From NCBI GenBank assembly GCA_964386385.1, contig CAYLRN010000001.1:172706-236705 (forward strand): 64,000 bases of DNA, written 5' to 3'. Under the pieces are notes generated by a model that worked only from the letters and a program-made list of their open reading frames with translations, had not been told where the DNA came from and searched no databases. This document shows, one piece after another, positions 3,797 to 39,958 of this stretch. The stretch comes from an uncultured Lentisphaeraceae bacterium. Lineage in GTDB: Bacteria > Verrucomicrobiota > Kiritimatiellia > RFP12 > UBA1067. How positions within the stretch are numbered: position 1 is the first letter of the stretch; every line of letters begins with the position of its first letter. A program made the translations under genes and the position numbers.

Positions 3797-6700
3797 TCAG
3801 CGGAGGATCAGCAGCGTTCCGACGGCGGTGACGACGGAGATGCGGCCGTTCTCGAAGACGAGCGCGGAGTTCGGCGCAGCGCCAGAGACGGAACACGCAA
3901 GGTCCGCCGCGTCTGGCTCGTCGCCGGAGTACGCGAAGAGCGGGAATTTGGGCGGCAGCTTCACCGGACGGTCTGCCATCTGCACGACCGCGCCCTTCTC
4001 GGACTTGAACTTCGCAAGCGGGACGGGAGCGGACTGGCTGAAGCTCGCGCGCAGGACGCCGCCGCTCTGCAGCCACAGTTCGTCCAGCGCCTCCGGCGTC
4101 GCAGCCACCATGTCGAAGACGCCGCCGGCCGCGACGCCGAGCGTTCCGCGCACGGAACCGGCCACCGCCAGGCGCTGCCCGGCGGCCAGCGCGAAGGGCC
4201 GGTTCGTCGTCGTCGGCAGCACGAGGCTCGCGCCCGCCGCCACAGTGACGTTCGTCGCGGCGAGGCCGCACGCGCCCGAATCGCTCGCATGGGGGAACTG
4301 CGAGGGCGTCAGGATGCCGTACTTCGCAACCCAGGCGTCGGTCAGAGCCTTTACGGCCGCGTCGTCGATGAAGGAATCGTAGAGGCGCACCGCGGCGATC
4401 TCCCCCTTGTAGTTGAAGTCGCAGTTGCCGCTGCCGACAAGAACGCGCATTGCCTCGCGCGGCGTTCCGCCGGATCCGGCCGCCAAGAGGCGCATATGCG
4501 TGAAAACGCCGTCCACGACGATGCGCATGAGGCCGGTGTCAGTGTCGAAGGAGCAGACGGCGCAGTGAGGCTGGCCGTCGGCGAGGTCCCAGACGCGGCT
4601 GACAGTGGACTGGTCGCCGCGCGTAGACACGTTCTTTCCGCCGTAGCCGGCCATGACGCGGTTGCCCTCGCCCCAGAGACCCAGTCCCCAGTCCGCCCGG
4701 TTGCTGGTGGGAAGTTCCGCGCCGACCATAACTGACGACGCGAAGAAGTTGCGGTTCATGGTCACGGAATCAGGCATGTTTCCGTTCGTCGACGTGCGGA
4801 ATACGACCGCAGCCGTCCAGGCGACCTTGCCGGAGGCTGGCGAATCGCCGGCGGGGATGCCGAGGGAGGTGTTGTTTCCGTTGAAATAGACGGAGTTGTG
4901 TCCGTTGATCGCGCCCTTGCGCAGAACGGGTCCCTTCCAGGTGGAGGCGTAGGACGTGGCCGACAGGTCGCTTGTTCCCGTGATGCGCGTGACGTTCGCC
5001 TTGTTCGCCGTGCGCGTTCCATCCGTCGAAAGCCATTCCGTCACCTCCGCACCGTCGGCGACGTCGACGATCGAATCGGCGTCCCACGCGGCGGCGCCGT
5101 CGTCCGGAATTGCCGCGGGGACTTTCTCCCCCATCGGCGGAACGTCGCCCTGCGCCGAATCGTCATCCAGCTCTCCAACCGCGTAGACGCTCGCAGGCGC
5201 GCCGTACTTCCCGGCGAGTTCCACGCCGACGGCGGCCTTTTCGCTCCATGTCAGAGTCCTGCCGGGATAGAAGCGGATCTCGGCCAGCGCGCCCGTGAAC
5301 GCGAACTTGTACGGGGCGTCGGCGTCGGCAATGTTCTGGACGCCGAAGTAGATGTCCGCCGCGTTGCGCGGGCTGCGCGTCGTCTCGTCGAGGTCGACGG
5401 CCCTCTCGACGGTCTCGCCGTCGACGGAGAGCGTGAGCGTCCCGTCGCCGGCCATGGCGTAGATGGCAACGTGCGGCCGGCCGTCGGCGTAGCTGCGAGC
5501 CTTCGTGTAGACGCTGTAGTCCTTGTTGAGCTTGGCGACGCCGAAGCCGGCGCCGACATGTCCGTTCGCGCCGAAGACAAGCCCCCAGTCGTTCACGCAG
5601 CCCGGCTGTTCGCGTCCGAGAATGCCGGTCTCCATATACCACGAGTTGTCCCAGCCCAGGCCGGGCGTCGCAGTCTTGAAGACGACTGCCAGCGTCCAGT
5701 TGGTCTGCCCTGCGAGCGGATTTTCCTCCGCCACGACCTTGAGCGCGGAGTGGTCGAACACGACGCCCGGCCGGCCGTTGAACTCGTCGAGAGAGGCCTT
5801 GGGAACTGTCGTCGGATTCGACGAAAACGTCGGAACCACGGCAGTGCGCGAGGCAGTGGAGTCCGGCCATGCGACGACGTCGTCCCCGTCGGCAAGAGCC
5901 GCGACGGCGTCCTCCGCGCGCCAGGCTACGCATCCGGCGGCAGTCGCGGAAGAGGAGGAGGACATTGGCGCGCCCAGTATCTTGACCGTCCCCTCGTCGA
6001 CGGCGAGTTCGCCCGTGAACGCCGAGGCGTCCCCGAGGACGAGCGTGCCGGCCCCCTTCTTCGTGAGGACGCCGCATCCCTTGAGCGGGGCGCGCATGGC
6101 GAATCGGCGGTCCCGCGTGTCGACTGTCGCAGAGGCTCCGGAAGGGACGATCGTGTCGAGTTCGCTGAACGAGTCGGCCGTAGCCGCGAGCGTTCCGCCG
6201 CGCAGTTCGACGCGATACCAGGAGTCGGTCGTCGCGCCCGAGTTCCACCGCCCTTCAGTGGCCGAGAATCCGCGCGAACCGATTTCGAAGAGGCCGCCGG
6301 AGAGCGTGAACGTGCAGTAGCTGTTCGTGACGGGAATCTGGCGGTCGGCCCCGAACGTCGTCGCTCCGCCCAGCGCGACGCGCGGGACGCGCACGGCGCC
6401 GCCCGACTGGCGGTATGCGGCGGAGGGGGAGTTCACGACCGTTCCGTTGTCGCGCCTTGAGAACGCGAGGATCAGTCCGTCGTCGCCCGGCTGGCTGGAA
6501 GAGGTTTCGTCGACGGCAAGCGTTCCGCCCTTCACCGTGAAGTCGTGGGAGACGAGCTGGTGGCCGCCGCGGTCGCCCATCCAGAGCGTCCCCAGATTCG
6601 CCGTGCCGCCGTCCAGGACGAACTTCGGGTTGGCGTACCAGGTAGAAGAGCCGTTGCCCATGTAGAACGTCGTAGCGTCGAAGCGTCCGCCCGTCAGTTC

Positions 6701-7552
6701 GTAGAGCGAGTCGTACTTGCTGAAGCCGACCTGCGCCAGGACCGCCTTGACGTGTCCGCCGGACTGGCGGAACTCGCCGGAGTCGACGACGAAGACGCCG
6801 TTTGTGAAGACCGCGCCGTCGCCAAAGACCACCTTCGGCGCGCCCGGCTGCGTGAGAAGCAGATAGCTGCCTCCGCCACCCATGTTGACGACGACGCCGG
6901 GGAAGACGTCCTTCCAGTCCGCCTTGTCGGTGAACGTCAGTTCGAGCCGGGCGCTTCCGCTCCAGCGAAAGTCCTGCGCCCAGACGCCAGGTTTCGCCAG
7001 GCGCGCGACATTGTGTCCGCCGGACGCGAAGCGGTAGCCGAGCGTCCCCGCATAGGCCGGCGGCGCATTGTGGCAGGCCAGCACGGCGTTGGAGACTACG
7101 AGTTCGGAATTGCCGCCGATGGCGGCGTTGAAAAAGACCTTTGCCAGTCCGAAATCCCATGTCTGGTCCGCGGCCGTCGCCAGGCGGACGCTGAACGTGA
7201 GGTTGGAATCCGCCCCTGCGGCATGGCGGGCCGTCAGGCCGTCCGCGCCCAGGGCCAGCGTCGTCGTCGCGCCGGCCGCCGCGTTCGTGCCGACGACGAC
7301 GGCGCCGTTGGGGACGTTCGTGAGGACGAGGCCGCCTAACGCGAGGCTGGCGGAATTCGTCAGGGCAGCCATTCCCGGCCGCGCCGCGAAGTCGACCCAC
7401 GCGACGTCGTCCTCCCCCGGCAGGACACCGCCCGCCCAGTTCGCCGCGACGGCCATGTCCGCCGATTCCGCGCCGGAGAACCTTACGACCTCGCCCCGCG
7501 CCATCGCGAGAGCAAGCCCCATTGCGACTGCACAATACGCCGCCTTGACCAT
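3797..7552 (-). CDS. Giant secreted/surface protein with autotransporter-associated beta-strand repeats and two LamG (concanavalin-A-like) domains
   Basis: I place the start at ATG 7552, preceded by AAGGAGG, which gives the signal peptide MVKAAYCAVAMGLALAMA. The 131 Arg-rich codons upstream in the track ORF are rejected. PATR-like segment: KKGAGTLVLGDASAFTGELAVDEGTVKILG. LamG-type endings: LAEIRFYPGRTLTWSEKAAV..AGKYG and IAAVRLYDSFIDDAAVKALTDAWVAKYG. Confidence 0.8.
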   Translation of the reverse strand: MVKAAYCAVAMGLALAMARGEVVRFSGAESADMAVAANWAGGVLPGEDDVAWVDFAARPGMAALTNSASLALGGLVLTNVPNGAVVVGTNAAAGATTTLALGADGLTARHAAGADSNLTFSVRLATAADQTWDFGLAKVFFNAAIGGNSELVVSNAVLACHNAPPAYAGTLGYRFASGGHNVARLAKPGVWAQDFRWSGSARLELTFTDKADWKDVFPGVVVNMGGGGSYLLLTQPGAPKVVFGDGAVFTNGVFVVDSGEFRQSGGHVKAVLAQVGFSKYDSLYELTGGRFDATTFYMGNGSSTWYANPKFVLDGGTANLGTLWMGDRGGHQLVSHDFTVKGGTLAVDETSSSQPGDDGLILAFSRRDNGTVVNSPSAAYRQSGGAVRVPRVALGGATTFGADRQIPVTNSYCTFTLSGGLFEIGSRGFSATEGRWNSGATTDSWYRVELRGGTLAATADSFSELDTIVPSGASATVDTRDRRFAMRAPLKGCGVLTKKGAGTLVLGDASAFTGELAVDEGTVKILGAPMSSSSSATAAGCVAWRAEDAVAALADGDDVVAWPDSTASRTAVVPTFSSNPTTVPKASLDEFNGRPGVVFDHSALKVVAEENPLAGQTNWTLAVVFKTATPGLGWDNSWYMETGILGREQPGCVNDWGLVFGANGHVGAGFGVAKLNKDYSVYTKARSYADGRPHVAIYAMAGDGTLTLSVDGETVERAVDLDETTRSPRNAADIYFGVQNIADADAPYKFAFTGALAEIRFYPGRTLTWSEKAAVGVELAGKYGAPASVYAVGELDDDSAQGDVPPMGEKVPAAIPDDGAAAWDADSIVDVADGAEVTEWLSTDGTRTANKANVTRITGTSDLSATSYASTWKGPVLRKGAINGHNSVYFNGNNTSLGIPAGDSPASGKVAWTAAVVFRTSTNGNMPDSVTMNRNFFASSVMVGAELPTSNRADWGLGLWGEGNRVMAGYGGKNVSTRGDQSTVSRVWDLADGQPHCAVCSFDTDTGLMRIVVDGVFTHMRLLAAGSGGTPREAMRVLVGSGNCDFNYKGEIAAVRLYDSFIDDAAVKALTDAWVAKYGILTPSQFPHASDSGACGLAATNVTVAAGASLVLPTTTNRPFALAAGQRLAVAGSVRGTLGVAAGGVFDMVAATPEALDELWLQSGGVLRASFSQSAPVPLAKFKSEKGAVVQMADRPVKLPPKFPLFAYSGDEPDAADLACSVSGAAPNSALVFENGRISVVTAVGTLLILR

Positions 7553-7625
7553 TTCAAGCCTCCTTGCCAGAGAATGCCACCCGCCGCGCTTGGCGGAAAC
7601 TGCAGAGTCCGAATGCATATGAAGC

Positions 7626-7653
7626 ATTATATCCGTTTTTTTTTTCTCGTCAA
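7626..7653 (-). promoter_or_regulatory. Sigma70-type promoter TTGACG-N16-TATAAT whose spacer contains an A10 homopolymer
   Basis: The minus strand reads caaTTGACGag(A)10cggaTATAATgcttc. The -35 is at 7653-7648, the -10 at 7631-7626 and the T10 run on the plus strand at 7636-7645. It lies about 70 nt upstream of ATG 7552. Confidence 0.65.
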
Positions 7654-7677
7654 TTGCGTTCGCCATAAATGGGCGAT

Positions 7678-8526
7678 TTATGGGAGTCGGACGGCGACTT
7701 TCTTCGGCGGCATGACGTCGGGGAGACCGAGGGCCAGGTACTTCGCCCGCGCGTAGTCGTTGTACTCCAGCTCCACGCGAGCGTCCTTTGCGATGCCCAT
7801 CCCGTCGAGGTCGCGATGGCGCGCGGCAAGGTCTGCGCCGTCCGTCAGATTGGGAACGACGAGCAGGCGGACTTCCATTTTCGCCTTCGCCGCGACGAGC
7901 CGGGCGAGATTGCGCAGAATGAGCTCGTTTGATACGCCTGTGCATCGGCGATGGAGATCAGCGCCGTGCGCCTTGTAGTCGGGAAGCCACATGTCCGTCA
8001 CTGGAAGCATCGCCTCGATTGCGGCTGGCGGCGCGTGAAGCGACGTGTCCAGGCAGGTCCGCAATCCCGCCGCGCGGAAGCGCGCGAAGAGCTCCGCCGC
8101 CCATTCCCAGAAGAAGAGCGGTTCGCCGCCGGAGAGAGTGACGCCGCCGCCCGTCCGCTCGTAGAACGGCCTGTCTTCAAGCGCCAGCTCGACGATGCGC
8201 TCCATTGTCATCGGCTTCCCGTAGAACTTCAGCGCACCGGTCGGACACGTCGCCTCGTCGTTCGTGCAGACCTTGTGTCGAACGCACTTGTGCCGGAAGC
8301 GCGCCAACTGCGGCTTCGGGTCGATCGACTCCGGGTTGTGGCACCACAGGCATTTCAGCGGACACCCCTTGACGAAGAACGTCGTCCTCATCCCCGGGCC
8401 GTCCCATATTGCCATCCGCTTCACGTCGAGAAGCAGCGGCGTACGCAGCGGACGGCCGGCAGCGAACGCCGGCGCCAGAGCACATGACGCAACGCCTGCC
8501 AGGAATCCCTTGCGAGTCGTCTTCAT
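7678..8526 (-). CDS. Glycyl-radical enzyme activating protein (radical SAM) with a Tat-like N-terminal leader
   Basis: The core LLLDVKRMAIWDGPGMRTTFFVKGCPLKCLWCHNPE (CX3CX2C) is typical of PflA-family activases. ATG 8526-8524 overlaps the GRE stop (ATGA). The N-terminus is MKTTRKGFLAGVASCALAPAFAAG. The accessory ferredoxin-like Cys motifs look reduced (CVRHKVCTNDEATCP). Confidence 0.85.
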   Translation of the reverse strand: MKTTRKGFLAGVASCALAPAFAAGRPLRTPLLLDVKRMAIWDGPGMRTTFFVKGCPLKCLWCHNPESIDPKPQLARFRHKCVRHKVCTNDEATCPTGALKFYGKPMTMERIVELALEDRPFYERTGGGVTLSGGEPLFFWEWAAELFARFRAAGLRTCLDTSLHAPPAAIEAMLPVTDMWLPDYKAHGADLHRRCTGVSNELILRNLARLVAAKAKMEVRLLVVPNLTDGADLAARHRDLDGMGIAKDARVELEYNDYARAKYLALGLPDVMPPKKVAVRLP

Positions 8527-11393
8527 TGCGCGATTCCCTCCGCGCGCCGGATGTAGGCCTCCTGCTCCTTTCGCGGCATGTCGTTCCAGCGGACGTTCCA
8601 GCCGCACACGCGCACCTGCAGGTTCTCGTATTTTTCGGGCCGCCGCTGGGCGTCGCGCAGCGTCTCCACGTCCACGACGTTGAAATGGATCGCGCATCCG
8701 CCGTTCGCGAAATACGTCTGCACCAGCGCCTTCATCGCGTCAAGCCCCTTATCGCCTCCCACGGCGTACGGGAGAAGCATGACGTCGAGCGGGAAGTCGC
8801 CCGGCAGGTCGCGGGCGTCGAGGTGGGCGACGGATAGCAGAAGCGCCGTAACGCCCTCCGTGTCGGCGCCCATCGTGGGGGAGACGTTCTTGCTCATCTC
8901 CTCGCCGGCGCGGCGTCCGTCCGGCGTCGCGCCCGTGGCGCGGCCAAGGTCGATGAACTGCTTCGCGCAGTGTCCGCTCGCCTCGAACGCGCCGTTGCGC
9001 GAATTCGGGACGCCGTTCAGGCATTTAGCGTAGGCCTTGACGATTTCGTCGGCGAGATGGTTCGCCTCCGCGTCGTTGTTTCCCCACTTGCGCTTCGAGC
9101 GCTGCATCCTGAGGCGGAGGTCTTCACGCCCTTCCCAGTTCTTCGCCATCAGCGCGCCGAGTTCGGCAAGCGACATCTCACGGCGCTCGTAGACGATTTC
9201 CTCCACGGCGAGCAGCGCGTCGACCGCGGTGCCGAGGCCGGTCTGGAGGACGGAGGAGAAGTTGCCGCGCCGAGTGCCGTCGACGAATGCGTCCTTCCCG
9301 GTCATGACGCTGTATTCCGTGGCAAGCGAGAAGAGAAGGGACGGGTTGACTTCGGCAAGAGTCCTCTCCCACTCGAACGCGAGATTGCGGCTCTCGACGG
9401 TCGTCTCCGCAAGCCGCGCCAGGTAGGCCCGCCTGAACGCCGCGAAATCGGCGGCGGCGAAAGTCCCGTCCTTCGCGCGATCGAGCAGTTCCTCGACGAC
9501 CTTCAGCAGATTGACGTGGGAGATGCCGGTGCCGTTGTAGCCGTCCCTGAGGCCGAACTCGTAGCAGCCGGCGACGACCATCGCGCGGCAGTCCTCGTCA
9601 GTGCAGTCGCGTATCTTGCCCTTCAGCACGCGCGCCATCGGCTCTTCGCCGCAGAAGACGAGCGAACGGTGTCGGCGCGCCATGTCGAGGGCCTTACGCC
9701 AGACCCAGTCGGGGGTGGAGGCCGCCATCTTGAGCTGGACTTTCGGCGTCGGCAGGGCGAGTTCGTCGTGCACTTCAAGGAGAATGCGCGAGACCTCGTT
9801 GTACGCGCTCGTGCCGTCGGCGTTCGTGCCGCCGAAATAGACGGGCTGCCCCCAGTAGTTGTCGATCGACCCCCACTGCCACCAGAAGTGGCGGAGCTGT
9901 TCGCGGAACTCCGCCTCGGTCGTCCGCCCCGCCGCGATGTCTGCGCGGTAGTAGGGCGTAAGGAGGCGGTCGAGGTTGCCGAGGGAGCGGACCTGGAAGC
10001 TGTCGAAGTTCTCGCTCATCACCCAGTCGAGATAGATGAAGAGCAGGACGTCATAGGCCGTCCGCGGCGCGCCCGCGCGCAGGCGGCGCAGGGAATCGCG
10101 CTCCTTCTCGAGGCGGGAGACGCGCCGCGCATGAACCGCGCCGGGCGGGTCCGCCGCCTCGCTCCGCAGGGCAGCCAGACGACGCTCCGACTGGACGACG
10201 AGGCGGTCCAGATGGCGAAGGACGGCGTCTGCGGCCATGAGACGGCTTTCGTAGTAGGCGTTTCCGTCCTTCCAGTTCGCCAGCAGACGTTCCCGGAGGC
10301 CGGGGAAGCCGAGCGGCAGAATAGCGTCCCAGTCGGGGACGGAATGGTCGTAGTCCTTCCACATGTTCCAGCGTCCGGCCTTGCGCCCGGCATGGATCTT
10401 CGCCGGCACGTCCGGACACGTCCGGGCGTCCACCTCCCCGCTGCGCTGTCCCATGATGGAATTGAGAGGATGCCCGAACCTGTGCTTCGTCCAAAGCGCG
10501 TAGGCGGGAAACCAGTCAAGGGGCGAGACGTCTATCGCCGCGCGGTCGCAGCAGAACGCGAAGAGCTTAGCCTTTACGACGCTCCACGGCATTCTGCCCT
10601 TGCTCTCCTCCGCAAGCCTTGAGAGCGCCCCGCGCATCTCCTCGCGCTCAAGGCCGGTGGCGGGGTCTGCGACAGGGGTCCGCCACTTGAAGCGAAGGTA
10701 GTCCGCCTCGTTCGCGAACGGCGCGATCGTCCGTTCCTCGTACGGGGTCAGGACGACGTTGCGCAGACGTATCGCCACCCGTCCCTGCGGATAGGGCTGC
10801 GTCTGGAAGCCGATGCGTCCCGCGCGCGGAACTGTCACGAAGCAGCGGCTCACCTCCACTCCGTCCCACGAACACGCGACATCTCCCTCGACGCTGCGGA
10901 CGGCGAGGCGATGCCAGGCGCCGGGCGTCCGTCGCGCCGCTACGGCGCGGGGGATGCGATGGTAGCCGACTCCCGACATCGGACCCGACTGCGGCGTGGC
11001 GCCGACCATCAGCCCCGGCCATCCCCACAGGTCGCCGATGTCCGTCGTCTTCAACTGGAATTCAAGACCCGACGCCTGGTCGCCGTCGCCGACAAGAACG
11101 GCCAGCCCTCCGTCGCCGAACGAATCGTCGGCGTACTGTATTTCGGCCGTGAGCTTGAAATCGCGCCAGCGTTCCCTCGTCGTCAGGACGAGCGGCCTGG
11201 CGCCGTTCATGGTCAGGACGCCGTCCGCCAGGCTGAACGTCTCCGCGACGTCGGCGGCGGACTTCGCCATCGGGCAGTCGAAGTCCGCCAGCGTCCGCCC
11301 GGCGAACAGATCCACCGGCGGAAGCGCGGTCGGCGCGGCAAGTCCCGTCCATGCGGCAAGGACCCCGGCGGCGATGGCCATTTCAAGTTTCAT
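8523..11393 (-). CDS. Glycyl radical enzyme (PFL2/dehydratase-like) fused to an N-terminal signal-like leader and a DUF1080/3-keto-disaccharide-hydrolase-like domain
   Basis: AAGGAGG lies 6 nt upstream of ATG 11393. The C-terminal glycine loop is NLQVRVCGWNVRW and the Cys loop is VVAGCYEFG. The N-terminus is MKLEMAIAAGVLAAWTGLAAP, followed by DGVLTMNG...WRDFKLTAEIQY...GLEFQL...WHRLAVRSVEGDVACSWDGVEV...GRIGFQTQ...VAIRLRNVVL, the DUF1080 pattern. Confidence 0.85.
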   Translation of the reverse strand: MKLEMAIAAGVLAAWTGLAAPTALPPVDLFAGRTLADFDCPMAKSAADVAETFSLADGVLTMNGARPLVLTTRERWRDFKLTAEIQYADDSFGDGGLAVLVGDGDQASGLEFQLKTTDIGDLWGWPGLMVGATPQSGPMSGVGYHRIPRAVAARRTPGAWHRLAVRSVEGDVACSWDGVEVSRCFVTVPRAGRIGFQTQPYPQGRVAIRLRNVVLTPYEERTIAPFANEADYLRFKWRTPVADPATGLEREEMRGALSRLAEESKGRMPWSVVKAKLFAFCCDRAAIDVSPLDWFPAYALWTKHRFGHPLNSIMGQRSGEVDARTCPDVPAKIHAGRKAGRWNMWKDYDHSVPDWDAILPLGFPGLRERLLANWKDGNAYYESRLMAADAVLRHLDRLVVQSERRLAALRSEAADPPGAVHARRVSRLEKERDSLRRLRAGAPRTAYDVLLFIYLDWVMSENFDSFQVRSLGNLDRLLTPYYRADIAAGRTTEAEFREQLRHFWWQWGSIDNYWGQPVYFGGTNADGTSAYNEVSRILLEVHDELALPTPKVQLKMAASTPDWVWRKALDMARRHRSLVFCGEEPMARVLKGKIRDCTDEDCRAMVVAGCYEFGLRDGYNGTGISHVNLLKVVEELLDRAKDGTFAAADFAAFRRAYLARLAETTVESRNLAFEWERTLAEVNPSLLFSLATEYSVMTGKDAFVDGTRRGNFSSVLQTGLGTAVDALLAVEEIVYERREMSLAELGALMAKNWEGREDLRLRMQRSKRKWGNNDAEANHLADEIVKAYAKCLNGVPNSRNGAFEASGHCAKQFIDLGRATGATPDGRRAGEEMSKNVSPTMGADTEGVTALLLSVAHLDARDLPGDFPLDVMLLPYAVGGDKGLDAMKALVQTYFANGGCAIHFNVVDVETLRDAQRRPEKYENLQVRVCGWNVRWNDMPRKEQEAYIRRAEGIAQ

Positions 11394-11435: not shown

Positions 11436-14400
11436 TCAGAAAAGGCGGTTGGAGAGGAAGCAGGAGGCGACGACGTGGCCCTTGACGATGAATGTCGAGA
11501 CGGGGATGCGCATTCCGGTGAACTGCTTGAACCCCTGCAGCCACTGCCCCTTCAGCTCCAGTTCGAGGTCGCCCGTCTCGGCGCGGAACGAGACGACGCA
11601 CAGTTCGCGCGGCGAATAGCGGATTCCGGTGCCCAGGGCCTTCGAGACGGCCTCCTTCGCGCACCAGAAGCGGATGATGGCGCTTGGGGTGTCGACGGCG
11701 TTCATCGCCAGATCCTGCTCCTCCGGAAGGAAGACGCCGCGCGCGAATTCGTCGGAAAGATACCGGTCGAAGGCCTCCACGTCCACGCCGACATGGGCGT
11801 TGACCGCGACGGCGGCCATGATGAAGCGGGCGGTGTGGGCGATGGAGAGGTCGAAGTCGACGTCGCTGCGCATGTGGTGCAGCCACGGGCCCGTGACACG
11901 GGGCTTTCCGCTGGGGTCGGAATAGACCTGCACGTCGGCGTCGCTCCAGCGCGCCTGGTAGTATCTGTCCAGAAAGCGGCGGACCGCCTCCTTGGCGGCG
12001 ACGCGGCCGAAGAGCCATTCCGTCCGGCGCGCCACGCTGCCCTTCTCCTCCATCTCCGCGAACTCGTGGCGTTCGGTGCGTCCGAGGACGATGTGCGAGA
12101 GGGTCTTGAGCCAGAGTTCCTCGTTGCGTTCGAACATGGGGTAGTCGACGTCGGTCAGGACGGCGGTGGCCATCGCAAGGCCGGTCGCGCCCATGCGCTC
12201 CTCCGGGAGGGTGTGCGTCAGGTAGGTGCGCGCCGGTTCGAGGAGCATCTTTCGGTATTCGTCCGGCACGCGCTCGGTGTATTCCTCGTAGCCGCGCAGT
12301 TCCATGACAAGGTTTCCGTTGCCGTCGGAGACGAATATGTCGGAGATGAGGGACGTGGGGGTGACGCCGGTGTTGCGCAGATAGCAGTGCAGGCGGCGTC
12401 CGACGGGATGGGCGAGCGAGTGGAGGGAGAGGCCGCGGATGCGGAACGCATATGAAATCGCCCCGTGGAAGCGCTCGTGGCTGCGCCAGAGCTGGAAGCC
12501 GTCCGTGATCGCGGCCATGAGCTGCGGGTTGAGCACCCAGACCGGGACGGTCGTGTGGGACACCGCCCTGTCCGATTCTGGCACCTCAACTTCGTAGTCG
12601 AGCCCCGCCTCGCTCCATCGGTCCGCGCGGCGGATGCACTGCAGAAGCGAACCGGAGAAGAGCATGTCGGGATAGATGTCGCTCGTCTCCCAGTGGACGT
12701 CCCTCGGCGTAGTGCCGTGCTCCGGCGGCGTGAACGCCTCCGGCGGAAGGGGACCTTCGGAAAGGAGGAACGTCCCCTCCATCGCAGGCCACGTCCAGGC
12801 GGAACCGGGCGTGTCCTCGCGCACCTGGACGCGCACGGCGACGCGCGCGGAGGCGGAAGCCGCGACGCGCTCGGCCCGGACGAAGAGGCGGAGGCGGCCG
12901 TTCCTGAATGCGGCCATGCGCCGGCGCTGCAGGTCGTTCACCGCGACGACGTGGAGGCCCGGCGCCAGCTGCTGGGCGAGCTCTGCCATGATCTCCGCCG
13001 CGCCGACGAGCGTCAGCGCCGTAAACCCGCGAAGCGGCTCAAGCCCGGAGTCGGCGTGGTCGGGATGCGAGAGCTGCGACGTCCCGAGGGCGAAGTCGGC
13101 GAGGATCGGCTCCGCCTTGAGGTCGAACGTCTTCACCATCTCGATCGATATGCCCTGCTGGTGGGAGACGACGTCCATGTCTGAAATTAGCGGACACACG
13201 GCGCCGAAGCCGAACTGCTGTTCGCGGCGCCGCGCCTGGGCGGCGATGACGGCCGCGCGCACCGCGGCCCGGCTGCGGCGGTCCGACGCGCCGCCCATGG
13301 AGGGCGCAAGCGCGGAGACGGCCTGCGGCGGCGGGACGTCCACCGTCAGGGCGAGGCAGGGGAACTCGCGCGAAAGCGGCATCTCCGCCTCCATCCTGAC
13401 GTTGAGCGAGAGGGGCGACGAGAAGTCCAGAAGCCGGCATCTGCGCTGGCGGAAGAGAAGCGAGGGGTCGACGGCGGCGCCAAGGGCGGCGAGCTGGCCT
13501 ACGACGTGCATCAGCTGGACGAGGCCCACGCGGTGGATGGAGTCCGCCGCCATCACGACGCGCTCCTCTCCGCGCAGGACCTCGTCGGCAAGGCCGCAGC
13601 ACGTCCCGCGCGGGCCGACCTCCAGGAAGACGCGATAGCCGTCGGCGTACATTCTGCGAATCGTGTCCGCGAACATGACGGGCCGCACCCATTCCTCCGC
13701 CGCCTCGTCGCGCGCCTTGCGGACGCGGGGGTGGAGCGGTTCGGCGCGGCCGCACGAATAGACGGGGAACTGCGGCTTTTCGTCTATCCAGTTGGACGCG
13801 AACTTGCGCAGGAGCGGAAGCACCCCACGGCAGCCCGGCGTGTTGAACGGCCTGTCCACGGAAAGGCGGCGGACGCGCGCCCCGGCGGCGGAAAGGCGCT
13901 TCACGACGTCGGCGGCGCATTCCGGCGCGGCGGCGATTGTCATGTGGCGCGGGGAGAGGCGATACGCCACGCCGACCTTGTCAGGCGGGAACTCGCCCAA
14001 CGCGCGTTCCGTTTCGCCGGGGCTTGCAGAGACGACGGAGGCGAGGACGCACTTCGGAAGCCCCGAATGCCCCACCGCCGTGTTCACCACCTTGTACGTC
14101 TCCTGCAGGAATTTGAGCCGGTGCTTGCGCTCGAACTTCCCGAACATCCCGCTTGCGGCGAGGGCGCTCAAATCGCCTCCGGAAAAGCCCGTCGCCCCTT
14201 CCGGCACGATTCCGAGCGCGCGGAAGAGGCGCGTCAGCGCCATGTTGGCGGAATACGTGGAGACGACGGCCTCGGCGTAGCCGCCGGCCGCGAAGACGTC
14301 CGCGTCCCCGCGGTAGTACGGCGCCGGCGGGAATACGAACGACGACGGCTGGAAGGGGCCTGCGCCCTTCAGCGCGGCCTCGAGCTCGTCGAAGGGAAGA

Positions 14401-14819
14401 CGGCACTCGCGGAAGCGCACGGTGACGTCGCGAAGCATGTCGGGATAGAACGACATTGCGCCGGGATAGATGAACGCCAGCTTCCCGTCCGCGCCCTCGC
14501 CGAGGACGTGCCTGGAGAAGAAGTACGTCCCCGACTTGTCGCGCAGACGCTCCGTCTTCGCGTCGGCGATCCGCGCCGCGGCGGAGACGAGGCGGCCGCG
14601 CAGTTCCGGGACGTCGGAGACGACGAGCGCCAGAACCGCGGCCTTCTCGCCGTCAGCGAACCGGCGGGCGCACGTGTACGCGACGTCGCGCAGCTCCACG
14701 CCCGTGATCTGGTCGATGAACGACACAAGGCCGTTCACCTCGGACACAAGCCCATCCCTGTCCGCCGCGCCGAGCAGGACAAGTTCGCTTCCAAACCATT
14801 CGCTCAGGTCCGCGCTCAT
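11436..14819 (-). CDS. PKS-like multidomain protein: acyltransferase-like, PKS dehydratase-like, and C-terminal 4'-phosphopantetheinyl transferase domains
   Basis: AT-like region: IYPGAMSFYPDM, GFSGGDLSA (GxSxG), VDRPFNTP, FLEVGPRG. Hot-dog/DH-like region around ILADFALGTS...PLRGFTALTLVGAAEIMAE. PPTase motifs: GKPRV, FDLSIAHT, VGVDVEAF, FWCAKEAVSKALG. I see no ACP (DSL) motif. The ATGA-type overlap at 14816-14819 couples it to the upstream KS-like gene. Confidence 0.75.
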   Translation of the reverse strand: MSADLSEWFGSELVLLGAADRDGLVSEVNGLVSFIDQITGVELRDVAYTCARRFADGEKAAVLALVVSDVPELRGRLVSAAARIADAKTERLRDKSGTYFFSRHVLGEGADGKLAFIYPGAMSFYPDMLRDVTVRFRECRLPFDELEAALKGAGPFQPSSFVFPPAPYYRGDADVFAAGGYAEAVVSTYSANMALTRLFRALGIVPEGATGFSGGDLSALAASGMFGKFERKHRLKFLQETYKVVNTAVGHSGLPKCVLASVVSASPGETERALGEFPPDKVGVAYRLSPRHMTIAAAPECAADVVKRLSAAGARVRRLSVDRPFNTPGCRGVLPLLRKFASNWIDEKPQFPVYSCGRAEPLHPRVRKARDEAAEEWVRPVMFADTIRRMYADGYRVFLEVGPRGTCCGLADEVLRGEERVVMAADSIHRVGLVQLMHVVGQLAALGAAVDPSLLFRQRRCRLLDFSSPLSLNVRMEAEMPLSREFPCLALTVDVPPPQAVSALAPSMGGASDRRSRAAVRAAVIAAQARRREQQFGFGAVCPLISDMDVVSHQQGISIEMVKTFDLKAEPILADFALGTSQLSHPDHADSGLEPLRGFTALTLVGAAEIMAELAQQLAPGLHVVAVNDLQRRRMAAFRNGRLRLFVRAERVAASASARVAVRVQVREDTPGSAWTWPAMEGTFLLSEGPLPPEAFTPPEHGTTPRDVHWETSDIYPDMLFSGSLLQCIRRADRWSEAGLDYEVEVPESDRAVSHTTVPVWVLNPQLMAAITDGFQLWRSHERFHGAISYAFRIRGLSLHSLAHPVGRRLHCYLRNTGVTPTSLISDIFVSDGNGNLVMELRGYEEYTERVPDEYRKMLLEPARTYLTHTLPEERMGATGLAMATAVLTDVDYPMFERNEELWLKTLSHIVLGRTERHEFAEMEEKGSVARRTEWLFGRVAAKEAVRRFLDRYYQARWSDADVQVYSDPSGKPRVTGPWLHHMRSDVDFDLSIAHTARFIMAAVAVNAHVGVDVEAFDRYLSDEFARGVFLPEEQDLAMNAVDTPSAIIRFWCAKEAVSKALGTGIRYSPRELCVVSFRAETGDLELELKGQWLQGFKQFTGMRIPVSTFIVKGHVVASCFLSNRLF

Positions 14820-34229: not shown

Positions 34230-36407
34230 TCAAACCGCCGGAGCCTTGATCCATTCCTTCATCTCGGCCGACAGCGGGGAGACCGACTTGACGACCGCCT
34301 TGGAAACCTTGCCTTCGGCGTCGGGAAGCTCGATCTCGTCGCCGGCCTTTCTGCCGACCATGTTCTGCGCAAGCCGCGTATTGCAGGAGATGACGCCGAG
34401 GTCGAGATAGTTGTCCCATTCGCCGAGGACGGTGTACGTCCTCTCCTCGCCGGAAGCGGTCACGATGACAACCGTCGTGCCGGGGCAGACGGTCTCGGAG
34501 ACGACGTCCGCGAAGTCGACGGCCTTGACCTCGTTGAGCTGCTTCTGGAGTTCGTCCTGCTTCTGGTGGAGGACGCGCTCCTCGTCCTTCGCGTACTGGT
34601 ATTCCGCGTTTTCGCTCAAGTCGCCGTAGCTCTTCGCGAACTGGATGCGCTTCGTGTTCTCCGGGATGTCCTTCGTGACGAGCTTTTCGTATTCCGCCTG
34701 GCGTTCGGCGTAGGAGCGGAGCGACGTGATGCGTTCGACCGTCTTCGCCGCGGTCTTCTTGATCTGGCGGGCCGCGAGTTCGGGGACGATCTTCGTCATG
34801 CGCACGACGATCATGTGGTGCGTGGACGGGTCCCACGCGATCGACGCCTGGAAGCGCTCGAAGAAGAGGGCCTGGTCGGCCGGCTTCAGGCGCTTGAACA
34901 TGTCCTCAAGCCACTTCTGGTCCGCGAAAAGGCGGCGGATCGTGTTCTGCATCCGCAGCGTCTCGCCCGTCTGCCTGCCCTCGCCAAGCGCGATGGCGTG
35001 GGTCAGGATGACGACGAGCGGCGGCAGGGACTCCCATTCCACGAAGTCGTTGTACCTGCCGATTACGTACGTCACGAGGGGGGCGGGGGCGTGCGGGGAC
35101 TTCAGGAGGTCGGCGGCGGCGTGCTCGCAGACGGAATCCTTCTTGAACGTGTCCAGGGTGGCGCAGAGCAGGGAATACGTCATCACCGCCAGATTGTCGA
35201 AGAGCTTCTGCTTGCGCCCGGCGCGCTCCTCCTCCGTGGAACCCATGGAGAGGAACGTCACGAAGCGCACCATGTCGCGGGCGGGCAGAACGCGCGCCGC
35301 GTCGAGATAGCGGTCTTCCGTCCACATGTAGTTGCGCGCCTTGGCGATGGTCTCCGGGTCGAAGCCAAGCCCGTCAAGGCAGAACGCGATGCGCAGATAG
35401 AGCGAATCGTCCACGCCGCGGACGCCCTTGAGCGCATAGCGGAGACGCTCGGCGATGCAGGCCTTCTGCTCGTCGCCGAGCTTAGCGAAATGCGCCTTGG
35501 CGGACTGGAGCTCGGCGACGGACGCGAAGATGGACTTGGGGTCGCACTCCTTCGCGAACGCCGAGAACCAGGTGTCGCCGTACGTCTCCTCCGAGGCCTT
35601 GAGCACGATCGGCTCGGCCCGGCGCGTGGGAATCGCGACGCACTTGTTCGTGCGCAGCTCGGCGCGCGCCTTCTCCCAGAAGGATTTCCACTTCGCCGCC
35701 TTGTCGCCCCGGTTCCTGCCGTTGTCCGGAAGGAGGCGGGCGAAGCCGTACTGGTTCACCAGCTCCTCGAGGCGCGAGACGGGCATGTTGCCGAAGCTCT
35801 CCAGCATGGCGACGACGAATTCGCCCGGCTTCTCCTTCATCTGCGCCTTGATGCGGTCGGGGTCGCCCTTCAGCATCAGGAGTATGTGGCCGTCGGGCGC
35901 GATGGAAAGCGTCTCGCAGGCGGCGTCGTACGTGAACTGGTGTCCGGGGCGGGTGGGGAAGTCCACGCTCACGCGACGGTAGAAGTCGTCGATCCTCCTG
36001 ACCTGGCCAAGCCCCCAGGCGCGGCTGAGGACGTAGGCCCCCGGGCGGAAGGAGACAAGACGCTCCAGGCGCTTGACAGGCTCGTTGAGGTCGGGCCGGA
36101 CGTCGAAGCCCACCGCGTCAATGAACGAAAGAAGCGTCCTGTCCTTCGTCGTGCGCTTCAGGGCGTCCCTGACCCCGGCGCCGCTCAGGCAGGAGTTAAG
36201 CAGCCTGCCGCAGCCGGACACGGCCTTGAACGCGCCGTCGAAGTCGCCGGCCTCCCCCATCGCCGCAAGCAGCGCGGCGGCGTTCGCCTCCCCCTTGCTG
36301 GGAGGCAGACTGGAAATCAACTTGACGACCTCATCCACCGGACACGGCGTGACCGAAAGCTTCGTGCCAATCTCGGCTTCAATCTCCTCAACGGACTTCT
36401 TATCCAT
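34230..36407 (-). CDS. greA: Long-form GreA/GreB-family transcript cleavage factor (~725 aa, large N-terminal extension)
   Basis: The C-terminal ~150 aa is ...KRIQFAKSYGDLSENAEYQYAKDEERVLHQKQDELQKQL...PGTTVVIVTASGEERTYTVLGEWD...ISCNTRLAQNMVGRKAGDEIEL, which is canonical GreA. The start at ATG 36407 is supported by the promoter at 36442-36470, whose -10 element covers the alternative ATG at 36443. Confidence 0.8.
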   Translation of the reverse strand: MDKKSVEEIEAEIGTKLSVTPCPVDEVVKLISSLPPSKGEANAAALLAAMGEAGDFDGAFKAVSGCGRLLNSCLSGAGVRDALKRTTKDRTLLSFIDAVGFDVRPDLNEPVKRLERLVSFRPGAYVLSRAWGLGQVRRIDDFYRRVSVDFPTRPGHQFTYDAACETLSIAPDGHILLMLKGDPDRIKAQMKEKPGEFVVAMLESFGNMPVSRLEELVNQYGFARLLPDNGRNRGDKAAKWKSFWEKARAELRTNKCVAIPTRRAEPIVLKASEETYGDTWFSAFAKECDPKSIFASVAELQSAKAHFAKLGDEQKACIAERLRYALKGVRGVDDSLYLRIAFCLDGLGFDPETIAKARNYMWTEDRYLDAARVLPARDMVRFVTFLSMGSTEEERAGRKQKLFDNLAVMTYSLLCATLDTFKKDSVCEHAAADLLKSPHAPAPLVTYVIGRYNDFVEWESLPPLVVILTHAIALGEGRQTGETLRMQNTIRRLFADQKWLEDMFKRLKPADQALFFERFQASIAWDPSTHHMIVVRMTKIVPELAARQIKKTAAKTVERITSLRSYAERQAEYEKLVTKDIPENTKRIQFAKSYGDLSENAEYQYAKDEERVLHQKQDELQKQLNEVKAVDFADVVSETVCPGTTVVIVTASGEERTYTVLGEWDNYLDLGVISCNTRLAQNMVGRKAGDEIELPDAEGKVSKAVVKSVSPLSAEMKEWIKAPAV

Positions 36408-36441
36408 AACTGCCTTTTTCTGGTTGAAAAACGTAAGGGGC

Positions 36442-36772: not shown

Positions 36773-39700
36773 TCACCTGAACTGGATGAGCGTTCCGAGA
36801 TGGAGCCAGCGCACCTCGTCGAGCACCGAGAAGCCGACGTCGCCGACGACCGAGAGGTCGTGCACGGCGTTCCCGTTCGCGACGCCATCGCGAAGGCCGT
36901 CCGAACCGGCGTCGAGCGGCCACCAGCCGAGCAGCCCAGACTCCGTGCCTTCCGGAGGACGTCCGCAGTGGCGGGCGACCTCGCCGGGCGTCAGCGCCCG
37001 GTCCCAGAGCGTGACCTGCGAGAGCGTTCCCTTGACCGAGAAGCCGCCTACGCAGTGTCCGCCGATGCGTAGGCTGTACCAGTCCGTGGCGGGATTGACG
37101 AAATTCTCCGCGCCGTCGGCGGAATCCACCAGCCGCCCGTCAAGGTAGAGCCGCGCCTCTGACCGGCCCAGGTCGTGCGTGAAGGCCAGCTGGTGCCAGC
37201 GGCCGGAATTGCGGACGGCGGAGGCGTCGAAGCCCAGCTCAAGCATGTTGTTGTCGAAGTCGCGCGTCTGGACACTGATCTTGAAGAACGAACTGTCCGT
37301 CCTGCTTGCGTTCGCGAAGCAGCAGAACCCCGGCGTCCTGTTGCCCAAGGCGCCCTTCGAGACGATTGCGCCGTAAAGTTCGTCGTCCAGCCCGCGCCCG
37401 CCGACGTCCAGGTCGCGAAACCACACGGTGAACGAGAAGTTCGTGAGCGACGGCCCCCACCCGGCGTTCAGGCAGGACGGCCCGTACGATCCCGTGAGAT
37501 GCGGAACGCCGGCCGAGCCGCCGGGGCCTGCAAGGAACGCCGCGCCCTCGGCGGAGGGATAAAACGCGCCGACGACGAGGTCGTACATCCCCGCCACGCC
37601 GTCGGCCTTGCGTTCGCATGGGATGAACTTGCGCGCGAGCGTCCCGTCCTGCCAGATCGCCGCGGCGTGGAGGCGTCCCCATCCAGACGCTTTCGGCCCA
37701 GCCTTCAGCAGGCTTATCTGCGCCGTGGACGTCCCCGTCATGGGATAGTCCAGCGCGGCAGACTTCGTTCCGTCCACGTAGAACGCGCCGCCCCTCGCGT
37801 CGAGCGTCAGGCGGGCCCGCGTGCCTGAAACGGCCACCACGGGCGACGACGGGGCGTTCCACCCCAGTGCGTCCTCAAGGCCGGCGTCCATGCAGCGGCT
37901 CACCCAGCGCATGTTGTTCAGCGACGTGAAGGCCTCGAAGAAAAACGCCCCGGCGGGAACGTCCGCCTCCGCGCAGTCGCGCGCGCCGACGACATGGCGG
38001 TTCAGGGTGGCGCTGACGTTGTACGGCGTGAAGTCGACCGTCGCCGTCGTCCCGGGCGTCGCGTACACGCACGTCGCTATGGACTGCGCGCCCGTGGCGA
38101 CGACGTAGTCGAGGGCCGCGTATCCGTCGGGAAGTTCCGAAACGTCGAGGTACGCGCCGCGCTCGAACGCATCCGAACCGGCGGCGTTCACGTGGAACGC
38201 GCCCGTGACGCGGTCGTACAGGCCCGCGGCGCCGTCCGTGATGCGCTCGAACGGCGCGAGGTCGCGCACAAGGACGTCTCCCTCGTAGATCTTCCAGCCG
38301 TAGACGCGAAGCCCGTAGTACGTGAACGGCGTGAGCAGTCCGTTCGCCGCGCACGACCCGCAGAGGGCAAGGGAGTTCACGGAGTGCGTAGTCGTCTTCA
38401 CGGCGGCATGCGTCGACTGGACGCCGAACGAGACCGCTCCGGAGGCGGCGTCCACCTCGAACGCGCCGCGGGACGTGCGGTTCTGGACGTCCCAGCTGTA
38501 GATGTCCGCCCCCGACGCATACGATCTGTCCATCCAGAGGAACAGCTGGTTGTCCTGAAAGTCGTAGCCGCCGAAGTTAACAGTCATGCAAACGACGCCG
38601 TCCGGCTCCGCGCAGCCGAAGAATGACGCGCCTTTGACGCCGTTGACAGGCTTGCGGTTTGCGGGGCTGCCGACGAACTGGATGTCGCCCGCAATGCGCG
38701 TGGAGGGATTGGGGCAGTAGCCCAGGTCGAAGCACTGCGTGCCGGTGGACGCGACGTACTCGACCGGGCGCAGCGCGCCGGCGGGCGTGACGGTGAACTC
38801 CTTCGTGACGGCCCATCCCGCGCGCTCGCCAAGGCCGGTCACGGTCACGGTGCCGGCACCAGGCGCGGCGTTGTCCGCATACGACAGTTCGTAGTCCGTC
38901 CCCTCCTCCAGCGGCAGTTCCGTGACGGGGTCGACTACGCGGGGCTTCGGACGGCACGGGTTCGCGCCGTCATACACCTGGTCCGGCACGGGGCGGACGA
39001 CGAACGAAGCGTTCTCTCCTAGGAAGCGGGCGCGGTCAAGCGTCGCGTTGCGGTCTCTCTCGTATGGCGTGAGGGCGCGGTCGTAGACCCGGATGGCGTG
39101 GACGCGGACGTCGGCGCGCGGGTTAGAGAAGAACGCGAACTTCGCCCCCCAGTCCTCGGAGTACGAATCCATCGCGAAGTCTGAGAGGGCGATGGCCTCG
39201 CCGTCGCAGAAGAAGGCGCTTGTAGCGGTGTTCGTGCCGTAGGTGAGGGAAAAGACGTGGACCTCCGCCGTCGTCATGTCCTCCGGCTGCCAGTGCCATA
39301 TCCGCCTCTTGGACGCGCTTTCGGGGAAGAAGGCGTAGAAGCCGTTGTCCTTGTCCCTGCGATAGCCGAAGCTTCCGCGCGGAGTGTCGGCAACCGTCTG
39401 CAGGTTGTAGTAGTTGTCGGAGAACTTCCAGGCGACGTTCTGCATGACGACCTCGACCGTGAACGCCCCGGCGTCGGGTCCTGTCGACAGACCCGCCAGG
39501 GCCGCCATCTCCGTCGTGTCCACGCCGGCCGTCTTGTCCGGCTTCGCGAGCGAGAGAAAGGCGTTCGCCTCGGCGGCGACAAGACTCGTGGCGGGAATGG
39601 CGAGGTCGTTGCCGTTCCCTGAAAGGTCTTTCCAGACCGTCGGCGAATCGGAGTGCGAGCGGACGCCGTCCACAATCGCGTTGTCTATGCCGTCCCAGTG

Positions 39701-39847
39701 CGCGACGAGGCCGTTCGTGACGTAGGCGTCCGACCCGAACTCGCCGGCGGAAGCCGCCGTCCCCAACGCAAGCGCCGCCATGAACGCCGCCACCGGACGC
39801 GCCATGCGCCCACTTCCCATCGACCTCGACCGATCTATCGATTTCAT
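36773..39847 (-). CDS. Giant secreted LamG-domain (concanavalin-A-like lectin) protein
   Basis: AAAGGAG RBS before ATG 39847. Signal-like N-terminus MKSIDRSRSMGSGRMARPVAAFMAALALGTAASA. N-terminal LamG-like start: LVAHWDGIDN...VWKDLSGNGNDL. C-terminal LamG: WHQLAFTHDLGRSEARLYLDGRLV...LSQVTLWDRALTPGEVARH. Confidence 0.8.
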   Translation of the reverse strand: MKSIDRSRSMGSGRMARPVAAFMAALALGTAASAGEFGSDAYVTNGLVAHWDGIDNAIVDGVRSHSDSPTVWKDLSGNGNDLAIPATSLVAAEANAFLSLAKPDKTAGVDTTEMAALAGLSTGPDAGAFTVEVVMQNVAWKFSDNYYNLQTVADTPRGSFGYRRDKDNGFYAFFPESASKRRIWHWQPEDMTTAEVHVFSLTYGTNTATSAFFCDGEAIALSDFAMDSYSEDWGAKFAFFSNPRADVRVHAIRVYDRALTPYERDRNATLDRARFLGENASFVVRPVPDQVYDGANPCRPKPRVVDPVTELPLEEGTDYELSYADNAAPGAGTVTVTGLGERAGWAVTKEFTVTPAGALRPVEYVASTGTQCFDLGYCPNPSTRIAGDIQFVGSPANRKPVNGVKGASFFGCAEPDGVVCMTVNFGGYDFQDNQLFLWMDRSYASGADIYSWDVQNRTSRGAFEVDAASGAVSFGVQSTHAAVKTTTHSVNSLALCGSCAANGLLTPFTYYGLRVYGWKIYEGDVLVRDLAPFERITDGAAGLYDRVTGAFHVNAAGSDAFERGAYLDVSELPDGYAALDYVVATGAQSIATCVYATPGTTATVDFTPYNVSATLNRHVVGARDCAEADVPAGAFFFEAFTSLNNMRWVSRCMDAGLEDALGWNAPSSPVVAVSGTRARLTLDARGGAFYVDGTKSAALDYPMTGTSTAQISLLKAGPKASGWGRLHAAAIWQDGTLARKFIPCERKADGVAGMYDLVVGAFYPSAEGAAFLAGPGGSAGVPHLTGSYGPSCLNAGWGPSLTNFSFTVWFRDLDVGGRGLDDELYGAIVSKGALGNRTPGFCCFANASRTDSSFFKISVQTRDFDNNMLELGFDASAVRNSGRWHQLAFTHDLGRSEARLYLDGRLVDSADGAENFVNPATDWYSLRIGGHCVGGFSVKGTLSQVTLWDRALTPGEVARHCGRPPEGTESGLLGWWPLDAGSDGLRDGVANGNAVHDLSVVGDVGFSVLDEVRWLHLGTLIQFR

Positions 39848-39932: not shown

Positions 39933-39958
39933 ATTATATGCTTTTTTTTTCCTGTCAA
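39933..39958 (-). promoter_or_regulatory. Promoter-like TTGACA-N14-TATAAT with an A9 homopolymer in the spacer
   Basis: The minus strand reads cccaTTGACAgg(A)9gcaTATAATtc. The T9 run on the plus strand is at 39942-39950. It has the same architecture as 7626-7653 but the spacer is 2 nt shorter. Confidence 0.55.

Follow-up and report, generated by a model that had tools for sequence, protein, structure and literature searches.

Repeat-mediated phase variation is textbook biology in pathogens, among them Neisseria, Haemophilus, Bordetella, Mycoplasma, Campylobacter and Helicobacter. Several of the repeats lie in promoters: homopolymers of G at porA and of C at opc in Neisseria, poly-C at fim of Bordetella pertussis, where the activator BvgA takes part, and TA repeats in the spacer of the Haemophilus influenzae hif promoter. 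In the vlp genes of Mycoplasma hyorhinis, the length of a poly-A between the -35 and -10 elements reportedly sets expression ON or OFF. Here we analysed 64,000 nucleotides (nt) of DNA, hereafter the window, from an uncultured Lentisphaeraceae bacterium (GTDB lineage Bacteria; Verrucomicrobiota; Kiritimatiellia; RFP12; UBA1067; GenBank assembly GCA_964386385.1, contig CAYLRN010000001.1, forward-strand positions 172,706 to 236,705), in which two genes for large secreted proteins, A and B, each follow a putative sigma-70-type promoter with an uninterrupted adenine run in its spacer. A preliminary description of this DNA had read these runs as possible phase-variation elements. Our analysis partly supports that interpretation, and we put at roughly 55% the probability that a slippage-prone promoter spacer yields expression variants of such genes.

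As in M. hyorhinis vlp, the poly-A is uninterrupted and sits in the spacer, several surface-protein genes per genome have tracts of their own length, and slippage, by which the vlp length changes arise, is likewise the proposed cause here. Unlike the mycoplasma, in whose AT-rich genome tracts of ~17-20 A make up almost the whole spacer, the window has 65% GC, and runs of A7-A12 are combined with fixed purine and linker bases; locus A, moreover, keeps one length in the long term, and the present system is known from sequence comparison alone. With Neisseria the two loci share a homopolymer in the promoter of a surface-protein gene, and there the effect of a one-base change is graded rather than strictly on/off: 5A and 6A in the poly-A of the N. 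meningitidis nspA promoter correspond to low and high expression, respectively (PMC6389960). The Neisseria tracts are, however, shorter or made of G/C, and experiments in a pathogen established what they do, whereas we deal with an uncultured commensal and comparative evidence. Like fim and hif, which serve surface structures, the window promoters have a simple-sequence repeat (SSR) that sets the spacing of promoter elements, but fim and hif have other repeat types, involve an activator (BvgA at fim) and are experimentally proven. A full-text literature search returned no paper combining Kiritimatiellae with phase variation, and to our knowledge repeat-mediated phase variation is essentially undescribed in high-GC commensals of the Planctomycetes-Verrucomicrobia-Chlamydiae (PVC) group. 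What follows would thus concern a known type of mechanism in a phylum without a prior report of this kind, and not a new mechanism.

Two probable promoters with an adenine run in the spacer

The promoters, the genes that they precede and the intervening leaders are the following.

7648..7653, minus strand: -35 hexamer TTGACG of promoter A, seen in the sequence and by promoter scan; conservation among orthologues begins here despite a different upstream gene
7632..7647, minus strand: 16-nt spacer of promoter A, composed of AG (7647-7646), A10 (7645-7636) and CGGA (7635-7632)
7636..7645, minus strand: A10 homopolymer (T10 on the plus strand), the putative slippage-prone element and the longest homopolymer of the window
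7626..7631, minus strand: -10 hexamer TATAAT of promoter A, invariant across all A-orthologues
7553..7619, minus strand: predicted 5' untranslated region (UTR) of gene A, assuming a transcription start ~7 nt past the -10 hexamer
3797..7552, minus strand: gene A, 1251-aa secreted protein with a PATR repeat, a signal-peptide-like N-terminus and the C-terminus GTLLILR
39953..39958, minus strand: -35 hexamer TTGACA of promoter B, from the sequence
39939..39952, minus strand: 14-nt spacer of promoter B, composed of GG, A9 (39950-39942) and GCA, the same in Logan contig L001
39933..39938, minus strand: -10 hexamer TATAAT of promoter B, from the sequence
36773..39847, minus strand: gene B, 1024-aa secreted LamG protein (Laminin_G_3) with a signal-peptide-like N-terminus and the C-terminus GTLIQFR
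7580-7597 (A) and 39877-39901 (B), minus strand: GC hairpins in the 5' UTRs, from predicted folds

On the minus strand, promoter A reads TTGACG-AG-AAAAAAAAAA-CGGA-TATAAT from 7653 to 7626 and promoter B reads TTGACA-GG-AAAAAAAAA-GCA-TATAAT from 39958 to 39933, which confirms the hexamers, spacers and positions initially reported (16 nt with A10 and 14 nt with A9). Promoter A agrees with the consensus at 11 of the 12 hexamer positions, is picked independently by a simple consensus promoter scan and lies 73 nt upstream of the start codon of gene A, which is preceded by the Shine-Dalgarno sequence AGGAGG at 7564..7559; promoter B agrees at all 12 and lies 85 nt upstream of the start codon of gene B, again with a Shine-Dalgarno sequence. 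Both thus have the TTGACA-like -35 and TATAAT-like -10 elements of a sigma-70-type promoter. Measured against a spacer of 17 +/- 1 bp, A falls inside with 16 nt, and B (14 nt) and its orthologues (19-21 nt) fall outside, although the optimum of the Kiritimatiellae RNA polymerase (RNAP) may differ. At B and its orthologues, alternative hexamers that would restore a 17-nt spacer were sought by eye and amounted to poor TATACA/TATATA candidates without the -7 T.

The runs stand out from their surroundings. Apart from T10 (7636-7645) and T9 (39942-39950) on the plus strand, no homopolymer in the window, which has 62-69% GC (~65%), exceeds 6 nt. The pattern TTGACNNNAAAAAAA has two matches where 0.08 are expected from shuffles, none of the 100 shuffles reaching two, and A8 runs occur at two loci against 0.36 expected window matches. 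Judging from hexamers, placement and conservation among orthologues, both sites are in all likelihood real sigma-70-type core promoters, and the original assignment of the two to secreted- or surface-protein genes is very probable. We also considered the T-run as an intrinsic terminator on the plus strand and rejected this, the terminator scan being empty at 7626-7653 and both adjoining genes lying on the minus strand.

The 5' UTRs of A and B have GCGCGGCGGG in common, with a small GC hairpin around it that is retained in orthologues, where L002 and L113 show changes that are compensatory or give G-U pairs. Its folding energy is no better than that of shuffled sequences (z = +0.5 to +0.7), and with stability at shuffle level and no Rfam match we rejected it as a known riboswitch or leader.

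The poly-A run changes length between near-identical sequences

Tract lengths were read from the consensus of Logan per-sample short-read assemblies, and they concern orthologues in sister lineages rather than the window's own strain. Two contigs from different Sequence Read Archive (SRA) runs encode the same A-type protein (P0051) and have either A10 with a 16-nt spacer (L123, SRR33036526) or A9 with a 15-nt spacer (L124, SRR33036527); this A10/A9 change in the promoter is their sole difference across 4947 nt. For an 80% orthologue of protein B (P0010), found as an identical protein in 17 contigs, we read ten (L113-L122). Over 3.5 kb these differ in three single-nucleotide polymorphism (SNP) columns versus four indel columns, and all the indels are confined to repeats in the 130 nt that precede the gene. 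Eight contigs have A10 as their promoter run, one has A11 and one A12, and one of the ten has a change from (GA)2 to (GA)3 adjoining the run. Because four distinct repeat states occur inside a single SNP haplotype, repeat mutation must be faster than substitution.

Length also differs on a broader scale: the apparently orthologous promoters of two species known from metagenome-assembled genomes (MAGs), L062 (A10, 16 nt) and L094 (A12, 18 nt), are two bases apart. At locus B itself, A9 is seen in the window and again in Logan contig L001, although L001 is perhaps derived from the same reads and so perhaps not independent. Two hallmarks of SSR promoter phase variation are thereby present, a repeat of at least ~8 nt between the -35 and -10 elements (A10 and A9) and, in the orthologous promoters of sister lineages and at the level of assemblies, a repeat length that varies faster than point mutation accumulates. 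The comparisons show, within what assembled sequences can reveal, that the A run is the one length-variable part of the cassette, across near-clonal strains as well as orthologous and paralogous copies. The preliminary description had named an invariant tract length as the finding that would speak against it; what strains of the sister lineages display instead is A9/A10 at the A-orthologue and A10/A11/A12/+GA at the B-orthologue. A scan of Joint Genome Institute (JGI) metagenomes with the locus-A promoter pattern (TTGACGAGAAAAAAN{0,12}GGATATAAT) returned only four unrelated AT-rich contigs and no extra samples.

Spacing is conserved at locus A and departs from 16-18 nt at locus B

Orthologues of gene A with 78-81% amino-acid identity (L002-L004) were recovered from Logan assemblies. 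Their upstream gene is an acyltransferase/ACPS gene, where the window has the activase of a glycyl-radical enzyme (GRE), and conservation at the locus starts a few bases before TTGAC and extends to the start codon. Within it, the 104 nt from the -35 element to the start of gene A are 84-88% identical between the window and L002-L004, versus 70-72% at four-fold degenerate sites, and 27 positions of the 28-nt core promoter are identical among the orthologues. With a conservation boundary at the -35 element and conservation above the synonymous level, a functional core promoter and 5' UTR are indicated at A, conserved relative to neutral sites in the way expected of a sigma-70-type promoter.

The combination of A10 and a 16-nt spacer is the consensus in the window, L002, L003 and L004, four lineages that are ~30% diverged at synonymous sites. 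A homologue with 65% identity (L110) reads TTGACA-GCGAG-A7-TGGC-TATAAT, so that its spacer is still 16 nt long with three extra non-run bases, and in a 45% homologue (L111) the run is only A4. By this comparison, the 16-nt spacing at locus A is apparently under stabilising selection over long time-scales and does not drift freely.

Locus B presents another picture. An 82% orthologue (L112) reads TTGACG-GGGGAG-A10-GTA-TATAAT with a 19-nt spacer, and B-orthologues in general combine GGGGAG or GGAGAG with A10-12 and GTA to give 19-21 nt. Across B and its orthologues the TTGAC-to-TATAAT distances are 14, 19, 19, 20 and 21 nt, never 16-18. The orthologues found by protein homology have uninterrupted runs throughout, in the A and B families alike, and all such copies are A-rich on the non-template strand, after a purine stretch (GACGAG, GACAGG, GACGGGAGAG).

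A probable promoter cassette of gut and rumen Kiritimatiellae

A scan with the pattern ATTGACNNGAAAAAAAAN{2,8}TATAAT over one genome per GTDB species gave 101 loci (L005-L105), with one match each. Low-GC genomes, mostly of Firmicutes, account for 70 of the matches, with a spacer of 16-18 nt in 62, including 43 at exactly 17 nt. As ordinary sigma-A promoters centred on 16-18 nt, they show that the pattern is not biased to short spacers. The window promoters share with them the string ATTGACnnG-A8/9-...-TATAAT; in Firmicutes, however, the run is unremarkable in AT-rich DNA and is followed by 6-7 nt, whereas in Kiritimatiellae it is a compositional outlier followed by a linker of 3-4 nt, in a spacer of 14-18 nt.

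The 31 matches in high-GC contigs include 24 with a cassette of the Kiritimatiellae type, 13 of them in group II introns and 11 outside introns. All 24 come from gut or rumen MAGs of Kiritimatiellae, Lentisphaeria or "Lentisphaeraceae", or from evidently mis-binned contigs, and all share the consensus ATTGACAGG-A(8-12)-N3-4-TATAAT. The non-intron copies (L006, L014, L039, L044, L047, L051, L062, L068, L079, L088 and L094) have a 4-nt linker and spacers of 15-18 nt and, where downstream sequence is available, precede signal-peptide proteins of 638 aa to >1600 aa. One of them (L079) agrees with window promoter B at 36 of 39 nt, from GCCATTGACAGG via the A run to TATAATT.ACCGCA. The motif accounts for 30 of the 34 A/T runs of at least 8 in ~249 kb of such DNA, a count that is biased because the loci were selected by motif. 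Cassettes of different run length can occur several to a MAG, as in one with A11 (L006), A9 (L044), A10 (L062) and A9 (L079). On the strength of this shared consensus, the window promoters appear as members of a promoter class that is characteristic of gut and rumen Kiritimatiellae and consists of TTGAC(A/G), a few purines, a pure run of A7-A12, a linker of 3-4 nt and TATAAT.

Some high-GC contigs with cassettes or introns (L051, L014, L081, L082) are filed as Clostridiales bacterium CCNA10 (71% GC), Limosilactobacillus gorillae, Clostridia and Bacteroidales; such bin names probably reflect binning contamination. Long homopolymers were also seen outside the motif: L062 has C20 and then A11 (4715-4745), followed by G12 (4828-4839), L068 has C13 (1238-1250), and a G44 at a contig end in L047 (6751-6805) is probably a sequencing artefact.

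Copies of the motif in group II introns

At the 13 intron loci (L037, L045, L049, L054, L055, L059, L061, L073, L074, L081, L082, L090 and L096) the open reading frame (ORF) upstream of the motif encodes the reverse transcriptase/maturase of a group II intron and ends in a TGA stop codon inside ATTGAC. Comparison with Rfam places RF02005 upstream of the motif and RF00029 (domains V-VI) directly downstream, confirmed in L037, L045, L049, L055, L061, L073, L074, L090 and L096. The motif sits in domain IV, ~55 nt upstream of domain V (on the minus strand of L073, the motif is at 1814 and domain V at 1897-1985). Spacers are 13-15 nt, with A8-A10 as the only run of at least 5 in the intron, and TATAAT lies within a small palindrome that covaries among intron subgroups. 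With this motif the intron may carry an outward promoter, or else the presence of the motif there may be a coincidence of RNA structure.

We first read an N-terminal 'leader peptide' gene family (MATGKALNGKPYAGNPHVRFDEGEVA) in 12 high-GC matches and then rejected it, the 'leader' being translated domain V. By translating domain V of these introns, ORF callers can thus attach a 'leader' that is conserved but spurious (GKPYAGNPHVRFDEGEVA...PRRGSLLY) to unrelated genes downstream. For the window promoters an origin as intron remnants was also rejected: the window has no match to Rfam at the gathering threshold, and similarity to the introns is confined to a 27-nt core. Nor are A and B flanked by domain V/VI and a reverse transcriptase/maturase ORF; upstream, A has the gene of a radical-SAM activase, and B has a divergent AAA-ATPase/PDDEXK gene.

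What the length changes might do

The reading that we favour is that strand slippage at the A run would shift the distance between the -35 and -10 elements by 1-2 bp and so change promoter strength. Promoters of E. coli with consensus hexamers peak at spacers of 16-18 bp, remain high at 15-19 bp and drop outside this range (PMC8695583). By these data, the gain or loss of single bases at the 16-nt spacer of locus A should therefore bring graded changes, and with near-consensus hexamers the likely outcome would be expression variants within the population that are graded, heritable and reversible, in the manner of a 'volume control' rather than clean ON/OFF. At locus A, 16 nt would be the selected and presumably active state, with shorter alleles (A9) as minority variants in mutation-selection balance. 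At locus B, by analogy with E. coli, the 14 nt of the window and the 19-21 nt of the orthologues would lie at the limits of the active range or outside it; all states seen there are off-optimum, which suggests low basal expression, and high expression would need rare length variants or an additional factor. If tract length does tune expression, it would provide a simple marker by which the heterogeneity of surface proteins in gut and rumen Kiritimatiellae can be read from sequence, and a first handle on the promoter architecture of an uncultured lineage.

Several observations weigh against expression variants of this kind. A 1-nt homopolymer miscall in an A10 run is possible in low-coverage short-read assemblies, although assembly artefacts are an unlikely source of the +2 and +GA changes. 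Upstream of the B-orthologue in L113-L122, two T9 runs ~100-150 nt before the start, the first of which follows a terminator-like hairpin (CGTCCACG...CGTGGACG), also vary between T9 and T10 among samples with identical coding sequence, and every run of at least 9 in these contigs varies; because these upstream runs vary as well, the instability would seem to be a general property of long runs rather than one of the promoter in particular. At A, the A10 consensus of four diverged lineages is explained equally well by mutation-selection balance. Finally, the TTGAC-to-TATAAT distances at B (14 and 19-21 nt) and the mode of the class (15) are not centred on 17.

The main rival is a strong constitutive promoter in which the A-tract acts as a rigid, AT-rich and easily melted structural element in a 65% GC genome, its length polymorphism being deleterious noise or assembly error. 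Such a tract would fit the purity of the run, its A10 length and the 16-nt spacing, all kept across lineages ~30% diverged at synonymous sites, as well as the homologue L110, which holds 16 nt with a less mutable A7. It would also fit a constant strand orientation and a preceding purine stretch, neither of which mutability alone requires, the equal instability of the upstream T-runs, and the minority status of the variant alleles (one of three read contigs at A, where two further similar places were unread, and three of ten at B). A need for AT-richness, on the other hand, would tolerate interruptions, yet the runs of the orthologues are pure; no single structural optimum fits class spacers of 14-21 nt that are unequal even among orthologous copies (L062 and L094; window B and L112); and the genes encode large secreted proteins, a class that is usually variably expressed. 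We consider this explanation possible, if doubtful. The preliminary description had leaned towards a classical ON/OFF contingency system, with A and B as independent switches captured in different states; only one tract length would then be active. The architecture would indeed match SSR-in-spacer phase variation of other bacteria, tract length is polymorphic among near-clonal samples, and a genome can have several secreted-protein genes with cassettes of different run length. Near-consensus hexamers, though, tolerate 15-19 bp in E. coli, A10 with 16 nt is the fixed consensus of four lineages, and B and its orthologues are never at 16-18 nt, so that a simple switch would leave B OFF everywhere. 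The idea of two different switch states fails on the spacers themselves, whose 16 versus 14 nt come mostly from AG+CGGA against GG+GCA, the runs differing by a single A. ON/OFF switching is weakened by these data, and we regard it as unlikely.

A quite improbable proposal is that the core promoter consists of the A-tract and TATAAT, with TTGAC as a separate, floating site for a regulator or for a lineage-specific sigma/RNAP contact. The run always ends 3-4 nt before TATAAT while the distance to TTGAC ranges from 13 to 21 nt, and it is 19-21 nt in B-orthologues that are clearly under purifying selection, both of which would suit such an arrangement; but a constant 3-4 nt linker follows trivially if length change is limited to the run, conservation begins at TTGAC, and at locus A the distance is kept by compensation (A7 plus 3 nt in L110), which argues that TTGAC-to-TATAAT distance matters. 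Slippage-generated expression variants could, at their most far-reaching, be part of a contingency system specific to the phylum in gut Kiritimatiellae, in which many secreted-protein genes would have a portable cassette, TTGACAGG-A(n)-N3-4-TATAAT, with poly-A length setting the expression of each individually. The cassette would be spread at least partly by group II introns (with the motif in domain IV, just past the maturase stop codon and ~55 nt before domain V), each insertion giving the downstream gene a tunable outward promoter. We rate this extension as a long shot.

Genes A and B and their surroundings

Gene A is the 1251-aa PATR-containing gene initially reported as a giant LamG/PATR protein, except that its start codon is at 7552 and not 7551 and that LamG is detected only in its homologues, the protein itself matching one PATR/TIGR02601 repeat. 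A 1382-aa ORF at this position was discarded as an upstream over-extension, the true ATG being the one that follows AGGAGG. No exact protein match was obtained for gene A, for P0001 or for the activase upstream, and homologues (P0002-P0007 for A) were used instead. By the source names given for homologues, the bacterium belongs to the Kiritimatiellae. With signal-peptide-like N-termini and PATR/TIGR02601 (A) or Laminin_G_3 (B), both products have the features of the surface or secreted proteins served by SSR promoter phase variation, and we infer a surface localisation from them. Proteins A and B have no significant similarity to each other by BLASTP. As the two genes are not sequence paralogues, their common upstream architecture did not simply arrive with a copied gene, and duplication of the promoter together with its gene was rejected.

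The C-termini of A (3797-3820, ...GTLLILR) and B (36773-36796, ...GTLIQFR) share a motif of about T-[LV]-[LI]-[IVQ]-[LFV]-R. Similar C-termini occur in secreted proteins 3' of cassettes or introns in L051, L074, L088, L090 and L096 (...GTVLILR, ...GTLLIFR, ...HTLLIFR, ...GTLLVVR, ...QMVIIVR), and the motif may be a lineage-specific sorting signal.

Upstream of gene A, a GRE of 956 aa and its radical-SAM activase (7678-11393, minus strand) lie between gene A and a 1127-aa acyltransferase/ACPS gene (11436-14819). Because the acyltransferase gene directly precedes gene A in L002-L004, the enzyme/activase pair looks like an insertion or a loss. Unusually, the N-terminus of the GRE is a 3-keto-disaccharide hydrolase domain. 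Shortly before promoter A, the TAA stop codon of the activase gene is overlapped by a perfect inverted repeat of 8 bp, CCATAAAT-cgccc-ATTTATGG (7663-7683, minus strand), which is absent in the orthologues, whose upstream gene differs.

The divergent neighbour of promoter B (40017-42080, plus strand) encodes a protein with AAA-ATPase_like and PDDEXK_9 domains. Logan contig L001 ends within this ORF, 237 nt upstream of gene B, where repeated sequence may be present. Downstream of gene B follow an 800-aa protein with C-terminal GreA/GreB domains (34230-36632, minus strand) and a DksA/TraR zinc-finger protein; the order gene B-GreA/GreB-DksA/TraR is kept in the orthologous contigs L001 and L112, and HTH_GRAD is listed in the orthologous loci. 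A 1033-aa Kiritimatiellae homologue of B (P0036, in a cluster of 129 sequences; 31% identity across 51% of B) is annotated as a sigma-70 family sigma factor (Pfam Sigma70_r4_2), and in it a B-like domain may be fused to a sigma region of the extracytoplasmic function (ECF) type.

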